A stretch of 7,103 nucleotides of DNA. Origin: a virus. Its lineage: Duplodnaviria > Heunggongvirae > Uroviricota > Caudoviricetes. The notes beneath the pieces are model-generated. The model saw nothing but the letters and a program-made list of their open reading frames with translations. It was not told the origin of the DNA and did not search any database. Both the position numbers and the translations under genes were made by a program. The stretch lies in the IMG/VR virus record IMGVR_UViG_2600254997_000006, positions 1-7,103 of that record, one strand, 5' to 3'. Each line of letters opens with the position of its first letter. Position 1 is the first letter of the stretch. Positions 1-5,840 of the stretch are shown in pieces.

Positions 1-36
1 GGCGGCTTCCTTTCCATTAACAAACTTTCGCAGTAA
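1..36 (+). CDS. 3' end of the upstream tail gene (lambda L-like tail tip assembly protein), partial
   Basis: Frame 1 is open from the window edge and reads GGFLSINKLSQ before a TAA at 34-36, 4 nt ahead of the K start at 41. The assignment rests on lambda synteny (L-K-I-J), not on recognisable domain content in 11 residues. Confidence 0.4.
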   Translation, partial: GGFLSINKLSQ

Positions 37-40
37 TCCC

Positions 41-784
41 ATGACACAGACAGAATCAGAGATTCTGGCGCACGCCCGGCGATGTGCGCCAGCGGAGTCG
101 TGCGGCTTCGTGGTGAGAACGCCGGAAGGGGAAAGATATTTTCCCTGCGTGAATATCTCCGGTGAGCCGGAGGCGTATTTCCGGATGTCGCCGGAGGACT
201 GGCTGCGGGCAGAGATGCAGGGTGAGATTGTGGCGCTGGTCCACAGCCACCCCGGTGGTCTGCCCTGGCTGAGTGAGGCTGACAGGCGGCTGCAGGTGCA
301 GAGCGATTTGCCTTGGTGGCTGGTCTGCCGGGGTGAGATTCATAAATTCCGCTGTGTGCCGCATCTTACCGGGCGGCGCTTTGAGCACGGGGTGACGGAC
401 TGTTACACGCTGTTCCGGGATGCTTATCATCTGGCGGGGATTGAGATGCCGGACTTTCATCGTGAGGATGACTGGTGGTGTAACGGCCAGAATCTCTATC
501 TGGATAATCTGGAGGCCACAGGGCTGTATCAGGTGCCGTTGTCAGCGGCGCAGCCGGGCGATGTGCTGCTGTGCTGTTTTGGTTCATCGGTGCCGAATCA
601 CGCCGCAATTTACTGCGGCGACGGCGAGCTGCTGCACCATATTCCTGAACAACTGAGCAAACGAGAGAGGTACACCGACAAATGGCAGCGACGCACACAC
701 TCCCTCTGGCGTCACCGGGCATGGCACGCATCTGCCTTTACGGGGATTTACAACGATTTGGCCGCCGCATCGACCTTCGTGTAA
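41..784 (+). CDS. K: Tail tip assembly protein K, with an N-terminal JAMM/MPN metalloprotease-like domain and a C-terminal NlpC/P60 (C40) cysteine peptidase-like domain
   Basis: 247-aa ORF. HSHPGGLPWLSEAD fits the JAMM motif H-x-H-x7-S-x2-D, and AESCGFVV upstream supplies the expected conserved Glu. GVTDCYTLF followed by NHAAIY and LLHH looks like an NlpC/P60 Cys/His core. The sequence is near-identical to lambda K as I recall it. An alternative start at ATG 185 (MSPEDWL...) has a GGAGG ~13 nt upstream and gives the 199-aa length I recall for annotated lambda K; ATG 41 has no obvious Shine-Dalgarno and may be translationally coupled to the upstream gene. Confidence 0.9.
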   Translation: MTQTESEILAHARRCAPAESCGFVVRTPEGERYFPCVNISGEPEAYFRMSPEDWLRAEMQGEIVALVHSHPGGLPWLSEADRRLQVQSDLPWWLVCRGEIHKFRCVPHLTGRRFEHGVTDCYTLFRDAYHLAGIEMPDFHREDDWWCNGQNLYLDNLEATGLYQVPLSAAQPGDVLLCCFGSSVPNHAAIYCGDGELLHHIPEQLSKRERYTDKWQRRTHSLWRHRAWHASAFTGIYNDLAAASTFV

Positions 785-1329
785 AAACGGGGGCCGAAGC
801 TATCCGTGCGCTGGCCACACAGATCCCGGCGTTTCGTCAGAAACTGAATGACGGCTGGTATCAGGTGCGCATTGCCGGGCGTGATGCAGGCGAAACCGAA
901 TTATCTGCCCGTCTTAATGAGCCGCTGGCAAATGGTGCCGTGATCCACATCGTGCCGCATCTGGCGGGAGCTAAAAGTGGCGGTGTGTTTCAGGTGGTGC
1001 TGGGGGCGGCGCTGATTGCGGTGGCATGGTGGAACCCTGTGGGCTGGCTGGGTGCCGCGGCTGTATCGGGCATGTATGCGGCAGGGGCCAGTATGATCCT
1101 GGGTGGTGTGGCCCAGATGCTGGCACCGAAAGCCCGGACGTCCACAGCGACCAGCACGGATAACGGTAAGCAGAACACCTATTTCTCATCACTGGATAAC
1201 ATGGTTGCCCAGGGCAATGTTCTGCCTGTTCTGTACGGTGAAATGCGCGTGGGGTCTCGTGTGGTTTCTCAGGAGATCAGCACGGCAGATGAAGGGGACG
1301 GTGGTCAGGTTGTGGTGATTGGCCGCTGA
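682..1329 (+). CDS. I: Tail assembly protein I
   Basis: 215-aa ORF whose N-terminus MAATHTLPLASPGMARICLYGDLQRFGRRIDLRVKTGAEAIRALA and C-terminus TDNGKQNTYFSSLDNMVAQGNVLPVLYGEMRVGSRVVSQEISTADEGDGGQVVVIGR match lambda I as I recall it. It has a central hydrophobic Gly/Ala-rich segment. It overlaps the 3' end of K by 103 nt in a different frame, as in lambda. GAGAGG lies ~11 nt upstream of the ATG. Confidence 0.9.
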   Translation: MAATHTLPLASPGMARICLYGDLQRFGRRIDLRVKTGAEAIRALATQIPAFRQKLNDGWYQVRIAGRDAGETELSARLNEPLANGAVIHIVPHLAGAKSGGVFQVVLGAALIAVAWWNPVGWLGAAAVSGMYAAGASMILGGVAQMLAPKARTSTATSTDNGKQNTYFSSLDNMVAQGNVLPVLYGEMRVGSRVVSQEISTADEGDGGQVVVIGR

Positions 1330-1347
1330 TGCAAAATATTTCATGTG

Positions 1348-1378
1348 AAACCGCCTCCGGGCGGTTTTGTCGTTTATG
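1348..1378 (+). terminator. Intergenic stem-loop between I and J: 8-bp stem, 4-nt loop, T-rich tail; terminator- or attenuator-like
   Basis: AAACCGCC (1348-1355) pairs perfectly with GGCGGTTT (1360-1367) around loop TCCG, followed by TGTCGTTT. The T tract is interrupted, so this may be a weak terminator or RNA-stability element rather than an efficient terminator. It lies immediately upstream of the J Shine-Dalgarno GGAG (1378-1381). Confidence 0.35.
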
Positions 1379-1389
1379 GAGCATGACGA

Positions 1390-4300
1390 ATGGGCAAAGG
1401 AAGCAGTAAGGGGCATACCCCGCGCGAAGCGAAGGACAACCTGAAGTCCACGCAACTGCTGAGTGTGATTGATGCCATCAGCGAAGGGCCGATTGACGGT
1501 CCGGTGGATGGATTAAAAAGCGTGCTGCTGAACAGTACGCCGGTGCTGGACAGTGAGGGGAATACCAATATCTCCGGTGTCACGGTGGTGTTCCGGGCTG
1601 GTGAGCAGGAGCAGACTCCGCCGGAGGGATTTGAATCCTCCGGCTCCGAGACGGTGCTGGGTACGGAAGTGAAATACGACACGCCGATCACCCGGACCAT
1701 CACGTCGGCAAACATTGACCGACTGCGTTTTACCTTCGGTGTGCAGGCACTGGTGGAAACCACCTCAAAGGGGGACAGGAATCCGTCGGAAGTCCGCCTG
1801 CTGGTTCAGATACAACGTAACGGTGGCTGGGTGACGGAAAAAGACATCACCATTAAAGGCAAAACCACCTCACAGTATCTGGCATCGGTGGTGGTGGGTA
1901 ACCTGCCGCCGCGCCCGTTCAATATCCGGATGCGCAGGATGACGCCGGACAGCACCACAGACCAGCTGCAGAACAAAACGCTCTGGTCGTCATACACCGA
2001 AATCATCGATGTGAAACAGTGCTACCCGAACACGGCACTGGTCGGCGTACAGGTGGATTCGGAGCAGTTCGGCAGCCAGCAGGTGAGCCGTAATTATCAT
2101 CTTCGCGGGCGCATTCTGCAGGTGCCGTCGAACTATAACCCGCAGACGCGACAATACAGCGGTATCTGGGACGGAACGTTAAAACCGGCATACAGCAACA
2201 ACATGGCCTGGTGTCTGTGGGATATGCTTACCCATCCGCGCTACGGCATGGGGAAACGTCTTGGTGCGGCGGATGTGGATAAATGGGCGCTGTATGTCAT
2301 CGGCCAGTACTGCGACCAGTCAGTGCCGGACGGCTTTGGCGGCACGGAGCCGCGCATCACCTGTAATGCGTACCTGACCACACAGCGCAAGGCGTGGGAT
2401 GTGCTCAGTGATTTCTGCTCGGCGATGCGCTGTATGCCGGTATGGAACGGGCAAACGCTGACGTTCGTGCAGGACCGACCGTCGGATAAGGTGTGGACCT
2501 ATAACCGCAGTAATGTGGTGATGCCGGATGATGGCGCGCCGTTCCGCTACAGCTTCAGCGCCCTGAAGGACCGCCATAATGCCGTTGAGGTGAACTGGAT
2601 TGACCCGAACAACGGCTGGGAGACGGCAACAGAGCTTGTGGAGGACACGCAGGCCATTGCCCGTTACGGTCGTAACGTCACGAAGATGGATGCCTTTGGC
2701 TGTACCAGTCGGGGGCAGGCACACCGCGCCGGGCTGTGGCTGATTAAAACAGAACTGCTGGAAACGCAGACCGTGGACTTCAGCGTGGGTGCTGAAGGGC
2801 TTCGCCATGTACCGGGCGATGTCATTGAAATCTGCGATGATGACTATGCCGGTATCAGCACCGGCGGGCGCGTGCTGGCGGTGAACAGCCAGACCCGGAC
2901 GCTGACGCTCGACCGTGAAATCACGCTGCCATCCTCCGGCACCACGCTGATAAGCCTGGTTGACGGGCAGGGTAATCCGGTGAGCGTGGAGGTTCAGTCC
3001 GTCACCGACGGACTTAAGGTGAAAGTGAACCGGGTTCCTGACGGCGTTGCCGAATACAGCGTGTGGGGGCTGAAGTTGCCGACGTTGCGTCAGCGCCTGT
3101 TCCGCTGTGTGAGTATCCGTGAGAACGATGACGGCACGTATGCCATCACCGCTGTGCAGCATGTGCCGGAGAAAGAGGCCATCGTGGATAACGGGGCGCA
3201 CTTTGACGGCGACCAGAGCGGCACGGTGAATGGTGTCACGCCGCCAGCAGTGCAGCACCTGACCGCAGAAGTCACCGCAGACAGCGGGGAATACCAGGTG
3301 CTGGCGCGCTGGGACACGCCGAAGGTGGTGAAGGGGGGGAGCTTTATGCTTCGCCTGACCGTGGCAGCGGATGACGGCAGTGAGCGGCTGGTCAGCACGG
3401 CCCGGACGACGGAAACCACATACCGCTTCAGGCAGCTGGCGTTGGGGCGTTACACGCTGACAGTCCGGGCGGTAAATGCCCGGGGACAGCAGGGCGATCC
3501 GGCGTCGGTATCGTTCCGGATTGCCGCACCGGCAGCGCCGTCACAGATTGAGCTGACGCCGGGCTATTTTCAGATAACCGCCACGCCGCATCTTGCGGTT
3601 TATGATCCGACGGTACAGTTTGAATTCTGGTTTTCTGAAACGAAGATTTCAGATGTCTCACAGGTGGACAAATCTGCCCGCTATCTTGGTACGGCACTGT
3701 ACTGGGTAGCCTCCGGCCAGAATATTAAGCCGGGCCATGATTATTACTTTTATGTTCGCAGTGTGAATACCGTTGGCAAATCGGCATTCGTGGAGGCTGT
3801 CGGCCAGCCGGGTAATAATCCTGAAGAGTATCTCAATTTTTTTGAAGGGAAAATAAACAGCACCCTGCTGGGGCAGGAGCTGAATGATCGTATTAATGCC
3901 TCTGCATTGCGCAGTGAAGTTGAGCAACTGGAGGATGAGGTCAATCAGCGACTGGAGAGTGATATTGCCGGGGTGACCCAAAAAATCGGGGAAACTGAAA
4001 ACAGCCTCACGCAGCTGGTTGCTAAAAAAAATGATGAGCAGTCACTGGCCATATCCCAGGTGAGTCAGAAAGTGGACAACGTCAGTAGCGAACTCACGCA
4101 AACGGTCAGTCAGAGTAATGAGGAGAATGCACGCCAGATTGCGCAGGTTCGTCAGTATGTGGATGAAAAAAGCAGTGAAATCATCTCGACGACAGACAAA
4201 AAACTGGGCGAGCAGGAAGCAACAATCCAGCAGATACAAAAGGTTCAGACAGACACCAGTAATAACCTGAACAGTATGTGGGCCGTGAAACTGCAGCAGA

Positions 4301-5013
4301 TGCAGGATGGTCGCCTTTACATTGCGGGTATCGGTGCCGGTATTGAGAATACCCCTGACGGTATGCAGAGTCAGGTGCTGCTGGCGGCAGACAGGATTGC
4401 GTTCATTAATCCGGAGAACGGTAACACCACTCCAGCACTGGTCACGCAGGGGGGACAGACGTTTATCAATGAAGCGCTGATTAAGACCCTTATTGCTCCC
4501 ACAATTACCAGCGGTGGCAGTCCTCCGGTATTTTCCCTGACATCAGACGGAAAGCTGACTGCTAAAAATGCGGATATCAGTGGCAGTGTGAATGCGAACG
4601 CCGGGACGCTCAACAATGTCACGGTAAATGAAAACTGTACGATTAAGGGCATGCTGGAGGCGACCCAAGTCAGAGGGGATTTCGTTAAAGCTGTATCCAA
4701 ATCATTTCCGAAACAGGCTGGTACGTGGGGTAACACGGAAACACCAAACGGGACGGTTACAGTCACCATCAGCGATGATCATAACTTTGACCGTCAAATC
4801 ATTATTCCGCCCATTATCTTTAACGGAATAGCGTATAGCTATCCGGGAAGTGGTAATAACCCGGGAGGTACAAGTTACACGGGTTATGGTTTTGAAGTTC
4901 GCAAAAACGGTGTATTAATCGCATCCAGAGAAACTAAAGGGGCCATTCCCGGTAGCTACAGTGCGGTTATTGATATGCCGAGTGGCAGGGGGAAGCGTCA
5001 CTCTGGAGTTTAA
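1390..5013 (+). CDS. J: Host specificity protein J (central tail fibre / tail tip protein); frame as it stands ends prematurely at TAA 5011-5013
   Basis: 1207-aa ORF with GGAG 8 nt upstream of ATG 1390. The N-terminal ~800 residues ([47 protein letters not shown]...) are near-identical to lambda J as I recall it. It contains an FN3-like segment (...[24 protein letters not shown]...[27 protein letters not shown]) and a long heptad-like Gln/Glu/Ser-rich segment at ~3830-4300. The extreme C-terminus is displaced to another frame (next feature). Confidence 0.92.
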
Positions 5014-5107
5014 GATTTTCCAGAAAGGCAATCAGGGGGCAGGCAATATCACCGACTGTACGGTGATTGTGACCAAAAAAGCCGCTTCCGGCATCAGTAT
5101 TCGTTGA
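4994..5107 (+). other. J: Displaced C-terminal coding segment of J, in a frame offset by one nucleotide from the main J frame
   Basis: Read from 4994 in the shifted frame, the sequence gives [37 protein letters not shown] before a TGA at 5105-5107. This parallels the lambda J C-terminus as I recall it (...MPAGRGNVILTFTL...VMVIKKQALGISVV). The main frame reads ...[15 protein letters not shown] then stop. The junction is the GGGGGAA tract at 4988-4994. Confidence 0.7.
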
Positions 5108-5128
5108 AATTGTTATAACCCATATAAG

Positions 5129-5152
5129 GGCACCAGAAATGGCGCCTTTTTT
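5129..5152 (+). terminator. Weak terminator-like hairpin plus T6 tract downstream of J and upstream of lom
   Basis: GGCACC (5129-5134) and GGCGCC (5141-5146) form a 6-bp stem with one central A-C mismatch around loop AGAAAT, followed by TTTTTT (5147-5152). The imperfect stem keeps confidence low. Confidence 0.3.
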
Positions 5153-5177
5153 ATTGTCAGAAAAGCGAGAGGTAATT

Positions 5178-5780
5178 ATGCGTAAATTATGTGCTGTTAT
5201 TCTGTCCGCAGTAGTCTGGCTGGTTGCCGCTGGTACGCCAGCGAGCGCAGCAGAGCATCAGTCCACACTAAGCGCCGGGTATCTTCAGACCCATACTGAT
5301 ATGCCAGGCAGCGATGACCTGAAGGGCATTAACGTGAAATACCGTTATGAATTTACGGACACGCTGGGGCTGGTGACGTCATTCAGCTATGCAGGAGACA
5401 AGAATCGCCAGCTTACCCGTTACAGCGATACCCGCTGGCATGAAGATTCCGTGCGTAACCGCTGGTTCAGCGTGATGGCGGGGCCGTCTGTACGCGTGAA
5501 TGAATGGTTCAGCGCGTATGCGATGGCGGGTGTGGCTTACAGCCGTGTGTCGACTTTCTCCGGGGATTATCTTCGCGTAACTGACAACAAGGGGAAAACG
5601 CACGATGTGCTGACCGGAAGTGATGACGGTCGCCACAGTAACACGTCTCTGGCGGGGGGGCTGGCGTGCAGTTTAACCCGACCGAATCCGTGGCCATTGA
5701 TATTGCTTATGAAGGCTCCGGCAGTGGCGACTGGCGCACTGACGGTTTCATCGTGGGTGTCGGTTATAAATTCTGATTAG
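5178..5780 (+). CDS. lom: Lom outer-membrane protein (Ail/OmpX/PagC-family 8-stranded beta-barrel), a moron / lysogenic-conversion gene; reading frame disrupted near the 3' end
   Basis: Translation from ATG 5178 (GAGAGG ~7 nt upstream) gives [36 protein letters not shown]..., a signal peptide with an A-x-A cleavage motif followed by sequence near-identical to lambda Lom as I recall it. After the G7 tract at 5654-5660 the frame yields ...[18 protein letters not shown]...INSD, whereas the adjacent frame (5663-5776) yields [41 protein letters not shown], a canonical OMP C-terminal beta-strand ending in Phe. The ORF-track start at 5139 is an upstream in-frame ATG inside the hairpin/T tract with no Shine-Dalgarno. 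Confidence 0.85.
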
Positions 5781-5803
5781 CCAGGTAACACAGTGTTATG
5801 ACA

Positions 5804-5829
5804 GTCCGCCGGTTCAGGCGGGCTTTTTT
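5804..5829 (+). terminator. Rho-independent terminator downstream of lom
   Basis: GTCCGCC (5804-5810) pairs with GGCGGGC (5817-5823) as a 7-bp GC-rich stem with one G-U wobble around loop GGTTCA, followed by TTTTTT (5824-5829). It lies immediately upstream of the stf Shine-Dalgarno GAGG and ATG 5841. Confidence 0.7.
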
Positions 5830-5840
5830 GTGAGGTGAAT

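Follow-up and report, generated by a model that had tools for sequence, protein, structure and literature searches.

The 7103-nucleotide stretch analysed here (the window; positions 1 to 7103 of IMG/VR virus record IMGVR_UViG_2600254997_000006) holds the distal tail module of a lambda-like prophage, with the gene order K-I-J-lom-stf. This report concerns gene J, which encodes the central tail fibre or tip attachment protein. The gene is a three-part recombinant that joins a lambda-like body, a shaft of 29-residue repeats, and a receptor-binding tip of the phage 434 class. Taken as a whole, the evidence makes it probable that the window carries gene J of a lambda-like prophage, recombinant in this way, with a repeat-lengthened shaft and a 434-class tip, and inactivated by a frameshift within a decaying tail module. 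The features of J are listed below with their basis in brackets; all lie on the plus strand, and residues are numbered in amino acids (aa) of the J protein.

1390 to 5107, plus strand: gene J, central tail fibre or tip attachment protein, probable pseudogene (list of open reading frames (ORFs), Pfam, DNA alignment with phages cdtI and 434 and strain E2348/69)
1390 to 3813, plus strand: hub and FNIII/immunoglobulin (Ig) domains, lambda-like, aa 1-808 (Pfam; segment identities)
3814 to 4272, plus strand: expanded alpha-helical shaft, aa 809-961, matching lambda gpJ 809-861 (AlphaFold2, hydrophobic period, boundaries of PMC11101478)
3904 to 4218, plus strand: segment without counterpart in lambda or 434, aa 839-943 (phmmer split; MAFFT gaps)
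3961 to 4221, plus strand: three clear tandem 29-residue repeats, aa 858-886, 887-915, and 916-944 (register layout)
3874 to 3960 (aa 829-857) and 4222 to 4308 (aa 945-973), plus strand: degenerate flanking repeat units (register layout)
4306 to 4641, plus strand: central straight fibre (beta-prism region), aa 973-1084 (Pfam Phage_Tail_Tip)
4540 to 4650, plus strand: conserved block, likely recombination junction (sliding identity; BLASTN ends at ~4649)
4642 to 5107, plus strand: receptor-binding domain of the phage 434/cdtI class, aa 1085-1238 of the corrected protein (segment identity, tblastn classes, Pfam)
4988 to 4992, plus strand: run of five G (four in phage cdtI), a +1 frameshift leading to a stop at 5011-5013 (four-way DNA alignment, sequence)
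4994 to 5107, plus strand: 37 out-of-frame codons and a stop, the end of the receptor-binding domain (corrected translation)

Six Pfam families typical of J score above their cut-offs and in the expected order, namely FNIII-A_GpJ, Phage-tail_3, Ig_J, Ig_J_second (aa 716-818), Phage_Tail_Tip (aa 945-1073), and Ig_GpJ_C. In addition, the neighbouring ORFs agree with the annotated K-I-J-lom-stf context of lambda, cdtI, 434, and E2348/69. By domain content and genomic context, window J is a member of the lambda gpJ family, while its ORF is not intact. Among phages, cdtI from enteropathogenic Escherichia coli (EPEC) is the top match to the window (95.6% identity over 95% of the window), followed by Evi, 2B8, and 434. 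A search of 5426 complete E. coli genomes gave a prophage of strain E2348/69 (O127:H6) as the closest locus, with 98.1% identity over all 7103 bases. No record identical to the window was present among the records searched.

In a BLASTP comparison with the J protein of lambda (NC_001416, 1132 aa), window J matches in two stretches, aa 1-854 at 93% identity and aa 938-1201 at 51%. Segment identities were taken from a six-protein MAFFT alignment that included the frame-corrected window J. In the body (aa 1-808), identity is 96% with lambda, 97% with cdtI and 434, and 99% with the 2015C-4136CT1 allele. The beta-prism region is 68% identical to lambda, 84% to cdtI, and 96% to 2015C. For the 154-residue receptor-binding domain (aa 1085-1238, frame-corrected), identity is high with cdtI (98%) and 434 (93%), and far lower with the PhiR49_2 and 2015C types (42-45%) and lambda (41%). 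A first-pass annotation of the window had described the N-terminal ~800 residues as near-identical to lambda J and the distal domain as unlike that of lambda. Both descriptions hold in the lambda J alignment that it had called for, in which an essentially identical distal domain was not seen. Within the body, identity drops to only ~70% against lambda, cdtI, 434, and even E. coli A25 across a short stretch of the second Ig/FNIII domain at 3640-3730 (J aa ~751-777). This stretch is 100% identical to 2015C-4136CT1 and E2348/69 and forms a small added mosaic patch upstream of the shaft.

In the solved tail of lambda, the trimeric alpha-helical shaft of gpJ comprises residues 809-861 and links the second FNIII domain to the beta-prism "central straight fibre"; its upper helix spans 809-840 and its lower helix 841-861 (PMC11101478). 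The additional residues of window J enter this shaft at a single point. When phmmer was run against the PDB chains of lambda gpJ, window aa 800-838 paired with lambda 800-838 and window aa 944-1020 with lambda 843-919, which leaves ~101 extra residues between lambda 838 and 843 (105 window residues opposite four of lambda). They fall exactly between the positions of the upper and lower lambda helices. In the MAFFT alignment, lambda and 434 each show 98 gap columns opposite aa 839-943, and cdtI shows 71.

The expanded shaft is periodic. The BLOSUM score of the shaft against shifted copies of itself peaks at 29 residues (z 6.7) and again at 58 (z 4.0), and its hydrophobic power peaks at 3.625 residues (29/8; z 9.8), exceeding the 95th percentile of shuffle maxima. 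No significant hydrophobic signal was present in the shaft at the 3.50-residue period of a canonical left-handed heptad. The first-pass annotation had called this a heptad-like segment rich in Gln, Glu, and Ser. Its composition (Gln 13%, Ser 12%, and Glu 12% across aa 824-960) and periodicity stand, but the period is 29/8 instead of 7/2, so that the heptad is only approximate; a repeat of 29 residues equals four heptads plus one. At the DNA level, Tandem Repeats Finder detected no repeats in 3700-4400, and the five 87-nucleotide units, once aligned, share only three invariant columns. Because the DNA units are so strongly diverged, the shaft duplications are old and apparent at the protein level only, and recent slippage is ruled out as the source of the repeats. 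An AlphaFold2 monomer model, computed with a 20-sequence alignment, predicts a single uninterrupted helix over aa 824-960, with a predicted local distance difference test (pLDDT) score of 75-93 over most of its length. The predicted helix is placed between the Ig_J_second and Phage_Tail_Tip domains.

The shaft varies in length among relatives of J. At 116 loci, drawn from phage records, IMG/VR, and species-representative genomes, we measured the spacer that separates two conserved anchors, one where the second FNIII domain ends and one where the prism begins. The spacers had the following lengths.

45 aa: lambda and 434
73 aa: cdtI, phage 21, and many Shiga toxin phages
105 aa: Edwardsiella
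131 aa: Xenorhabdus
146 aa: the window, 2015C-4136CT1, and PhiR49_2
182 aa: one IMG/VR contig
~282 aa: one error-rich genome

A hidden Markov model (HMM) of the repeat, built from the three clear units of the window, counted no copies in lambda and 434, one in cdtI, three in PhiR49_2 and 2015C, four in locus L043, and at least six in protein P0001. This graded series indicates that the apparent insertion is one allele of a shaft with variable copy number, not a foreign domain. The central coiled-coil-like insertion of the first-pass annotation is therefore real in its extra residues, but what these residues do is lengthen the alpha-helical shaft that J already has. Of the 5426 complete genomes, 30 contain a near-identical long shaft, and the PhiR49_2-like long type, which is 66% identical, is found in clusters of hundreds to more than 1000 partial entries. 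A large protein search with the central 201 aa, the source of P0001, yielded only fragments, none longer than 352 aa and most of them partial J entries from E. coli. In the searchable literature, we found no account of lambdoid J shafts differing in repeat number; the coverage of that literature is incomplete, and the negative result is no proof of novelty.

Several of these loci are peculiar in their own right. The contig that carries P0001 (L007; GCA_045584695.1, contig JBIHAK010000001.1, ~5750-6600) has its six or more repeats arranged as three 58-residue units. Its J homologue also contains an 11-residue duplication (MTQLENAINRE, twice) and ends in a different C-terminus that is not Ig_GpJ_C. 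This contig is full of frameshifts, and its exact repeat number and details are unreliable. An apparent 214-aa spacer class (L068; IMGVR_UViG_2695420746_000006, 784-2052) was rejected as a longer shaft, since the contig duplicates the shaft-prism stretch: the shaft and the start of the prism occur in tandem from two different J alleles (...NGNTKPMFVGQPSDDASGYLDFFKGEIG...), as a hybrid J or an assembly chimera. Thirteen loci (within L097-L111, and including the lambda reference L001) have a J shaft segment identical to that of lambda. Among them, L097-L099 come from species-representative assemblies of the unrelated bacteria Neobacillus, Kitasatospora, and Leeuwenhoekiella. Bradyrhizobium, Shewanella, and others contribute more loci of the lambda type; most of these loci sit on short contigs at a coverage of ~1. 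Such lambda-type J loci in assemblies of unrelated bacteria look like contamination with lambda DNA.

Sliding identity and BLASTN reveal where the shaft and tip were joined. The window resembles 2015C from at least 3460 to ~4649 and cdtI/434 from ~4540 to its end. As the two stretches overlap and the partner allele switches there, the block at 4540-4650 is the likely crossover site. This block is 89-96% identical to lambda, cdtI, 434, and 2015C and 70% identical to PhiR49_2. The BLASTN alignment with 2015C-4136CT1 ends at ~4649, and all seven IMG/VR long-shaft alleles that were aligned at the DNA level stop matching at that point too and have another type of receptor-binding domain. The long shaft and the 434-class tip occur together in only five of the 5426 complete genomes, namely A25 and four E2348/69 assemblies. 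The block looks like a natural splice point between the shaft/prism and receptor-binding modules.

The tip that follows the block belongs to a well-separated class. In a tblastn search of phage records with the receptor-binding domain, identities were bimodal, with 74 records at 90% or above (including 434), 168 below 60%, and lambda at 38%. Judged by sequence, the distal domain of window J falls into a discrete 434-class (h434) receptor-binding domain. Lambda is redirected to OmpC when its J is exchanged for the 434 gene (PMC11101478; also PMC12502783). Given the class of the domain and the use of OmpC by 434, OmpC is the most likely receptor of the intact version of the allele. The first-pass annotation had suggested a receptor specificity other than that of lambda, and homology agrees with it. 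As a statement about host range, the suggestion meets the difficulty that the frameshift removes 37 receptor-binding residues from the ORF, so that this copy probably specifies no host range at all. Among solved structures, the top match to the prism and receptor-binding domain of the window is PDB 9wca/9wcb, chain "A8 gpJ 713", and not lambda; the receptor-binding domain of this chain resembles the 2015C-4136CT1 type.

The frameshift lies close to the end of J. At this site the window reads GGC AGG GGG AAG where cdtI reads GGC AGG GGA AGC, and the stop at 5013, which the first-pass annotation took as the end of J, is created by the extra G that it overlooked. The homologous +1 frame runs on to a TGA at 5105-5107, and the translation of the 37 out-of-frame codons is identical or nearly so to the C-termini of cdtI and 434. 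Likewise, the match of the uncorrected ORF to Pfam Ig_GpJ_C covers no more than positions 1-95 of 135. Removal of one G yields a 1238-aa protein, equal in length to the intact gpJ of E. coli A25 (WP_201488479.1), from which it differs by 21 substitutions, only one of them (R1200G) beyond aa 777. The gpJ pseudogene of E2348/69 carries two other frameshifts, in a G-run at window position 3333 and in an A8 run (GCT AAA AAA AAT) at 4024 inside the repeat shaft, while the window has in-frame lengths at both. The different sites indicate that relatives broke J at different homopolymer tracts.

The neighbouring genes, as taken from the ORF list, are also affected.

41 to 784: K
682 to 1329: I
1390 to 5013, plus strand: J as an uncorrected ORF, 1207 aa
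5178 to 5780: lom
5841 onward to 7103: stf, start only

In lom, which encodes an Ail/Lom outer-membrane protein, a T near 5654 that is present in E2348/69 (GCG TGG GGG GCT) has been lost, and this -1 lesion puts the conserved C-terminal beta-strands into another frame. In stf, a perfect 13-bp tandem duplication (acggcacaggaaa, twice, at 5872-5884 and 5885-5897) shifts the frame fifteen codons after the ATG. The rest of stf corresponds one-to-one with that of E2348/69, including a long collagen-like Gly-X-Y run at ~6600-6950 (G+C 0.70). The three lesions are independent, and the one in stf is no homopolymer error, so that a decaying prophage is favoured over sequencing noise; J appears to have been inactivated by its frameshift, with probable loss of function. 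The observation of the first-pass annotation is thus confirmed and its mosaic reading supported, whereas its interpretation needed correction on the origin and period of the shaft and on the frameshift.

A number of points weigh against this overall reading and give room to alternatives. The AlphaFold2 monomer is poor beyond the helix (mean pLDDT 59.5, and below 50 across much of the prism and receptor-binding domain), and the geometry of a trimeric bundle is carried over from the lambda gpJ structures, our model being a monomer. The repeat HMM gave no significant match to the terminal shaft helix of lambda, the segment that refolds on LamB binding, or to the terminal unit of the window itself; it is the register and residue pattern that suggest homology between them. 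The J frameshift, a single base in a G-run, could on its own be a sequencing error. J may accordingly be intact and functional, with the extra G a homopolymer error of sequencing or assembly and the real product 1238 aa long as in A25. This alternative gains from the match of the corrected product to A25 gpJ in length and, after aa 777, in all but R1200G, and from the fact that the other J indels relative to E2348/69 (at 3333 and 4024) likewise lie in homopolymer runs. However, two adjacent genes are separately disrupted, one of them by a duplication that is not a typical base-calling error, and the closest relative, in E2348/69, is itself a degraded prophage with gpJ (E2348C_RS28990) and the tape-measure gene annotated as frameshifted and with nleB2 and nleC downstream. 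We therefore regard an intact J as the less probable case, although one of appreciable weight. A comparable doubt attaches to the receptor. Eleven of the 154 tip positions differ from 434, several of them by a change of charge (DD to SY, R to S, R to G), and these charge changes fall in probable loops that may contact the receptor, so that fine specificity could differ. The tip might then recognise a different outer-membrane protein, or only particular OmpC alleles, in spite of its 434-class sequence. The substitutions are clustered (one cluster reads KGNQGAGN against KGNQRAGN in 434), and a few point mutations in J shift lambda from LamB to OmpF (discussed in PMC11101478). Set against this are the 93% overall identity to 434, the tight class membership, and the use of OmpC by the J protein of an unrelated long-tailed enterohaemorrhagic E. 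coli phage (PMC12502783), which points to OmpC as a common target. A divergent receptor is a minority expectation that still deserves to be taken seriously.

The shaft invites two further explanations. The segment could have been acquired as a foreign coiled-coil domain from some unrelated gene, for example one for a side tail fibre, which would account for the lack of a lambda counterpart and for the abrupt drop in G+C from 0.65 to 0.47 around 3600-3750. Nevertheless, the segment sits exactly inside J's own helical shaft and shares its 29-residue register with the terminal shaft unit common to all alleles. Moreover, a graded series of one, three, four, and at least six copies exists within J homologues, and every match to the segment is a J protein, all of which makes capture from elsewhere highly improbable. 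Alternatively, the long shaft could switch its fold on a large scale, as the central fibre of the F7 pyocin does, the whole coil turning into a beta-prism on receptor binding and powering membrane penetration. In F7, a 163-residue coiled shaft converts wholly to beta-prism, and like switches are predicted in many siphophage fibres (PMC12874032). The window shaft is comparable in length to that coil, lambda shaft residues 841-861 go from helix to beta-sheet on LamB binding (PMC11101478), a weak similarity to the F2 pyocin fibre was found (PDB 25vf; E 3.8e-5, query 92-234), and the shaft has a self-similarity at lag 11 (z 3.5). On the other hand, the strand motif SxSxxMxxLxS, which is reported as necessary for the pyocin switch, is not enriched in the shaft, with one full match against 1.22 expected in shuffles (P 0.71) and nine matches at four or more of the five positions against 11.9 expected. 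The repeats also contain little Ala and much Gln, Ser, and Glu, the AlphaFold2 monomer computed with an alignment gave a helix and no strands, and He et al. state that an extensive switch is absent from lambda. We consider a full fold switch unlikely; as the pyocin motif is not enriched, a role of the shaft as a spacer and signal-transmitting element is favoured.

An architecture can be proposed for the intact allele. J would be a trimeric protein that closes the tail tip and extends from it as the central fibre, the trimer being expected from lambda. The shaft comprises ~150 residues compared with 53 in lambda, the added length coming from the three clear and two degenerate 29-residue repeats. 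Since its hydrophobic positions are spaced 3.625 residues apart, a repeat would span eight turns of helix, and the bundle should be nearly straight. The shaft would measure ~20 nm (137 helical residues) compared with ~8 nm in lambda, and before infection the tip would stand ~15 nm farther from the tail tube than that of lambda (101 residues at 0.15 nm). Following the conserved block, the 434-class Ig-like domain would by homology dock on the OmpC trimer rather than on LamB. In lambda, receptor binding flips the shaft, and residues 841-861 refold into a beta-sheet atop the prism, releasing the FNIII closure (PMC11101478).

We tentatively suggest, while holding it rather doubtful, that the repeat array is a tunable length module in which whole 29- or 58-residue units are gained or lost, setting how far the tip projects beyond the tail. 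It is a matter of speculation that a longer shaft could reach porins through the O-antigen or capsule layers of wild E. coli, and repeat number might also set the conformational energy stored in the shaft for tip opening. If the shaft is tunable, it would provide a second axis of J host-range evolution, independent of the receptor-binding domain.

Both the h434 specificity and mosaic J genes whose receptor-binding domains have been exchanged are classical lambdoid biology. The window allele is not unusual in databases, for its intact 1238-aa version is annotated (RefSeq, E. coli A25) and a frameshifted one is present in E2348/69. The locus itself matters little, being of a known mosaic kind, with its allele already in RefSeq and this copy broken. 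Of more interest is that natural J alleles differ by discrete 29-residue units in their shaft, a structure that recent cryo-electron microscopy has linked to the opening of the tip and to signal transmission, and this series is a modest extension of the known structural biology. Together, the repeat series and the splice point offer ready designs for chimeric lambda or tailocin fibres and for relating fibre length to adsorption on smooth strains.

Comparing window J with known systems, lambda gpJ (NP_040600.1; PDB 8IYK, 8XCG, 8XCJ) has the hub, FNIII domains, alpha-helical shaft, beta-prism fibre, and Ig-like receptor-binding domain in the same order. It differs in its ~53-residue shaft with no full 29-residue repeat by HMM, its LamB-binding domain, and its intact 1132-aa gene. 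The central tail fibre of phage 434 (UMO75286.1, OL657226) shares the receptor-binding domain at 93% identity and has the classical h434 specificity for OmpC (PMC11101478), whereas its shaft is of the short lambda type, with a spacer of 45 aa compared with 146 aa in the window. The orf18 product of cdtI (BAF63351.1, AB285204), an inducible lambdoid EPEC prophage, is closer still in this domain (98%) and has the same K-I-J-lom-stf order, but with 1165 aa it is 73 residues shorter and has one 29-residue repeat rather than three. A25 gpJ and the E2348/69 gpJ pseudogene represent the same three-part allele as the window; A25 differs in having four G and an open frame, and E2348/69 in its two other frameshifts. 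Farther afield, the central fibres of F-type pyocins (F7, PMC12874032; F2, PMC13455828, PDB 25vf) likewise have a hub homologous to that of lambda J followed by a very long trimeric alpha-helical shaft, and the weak sequence likeness of the F2 fibre to the window covers the junction of shaft and prism. Unlike window J, the F-type pyocin fibres have no Ig-like receptor-binding domain and bear side fibres on the shaft.

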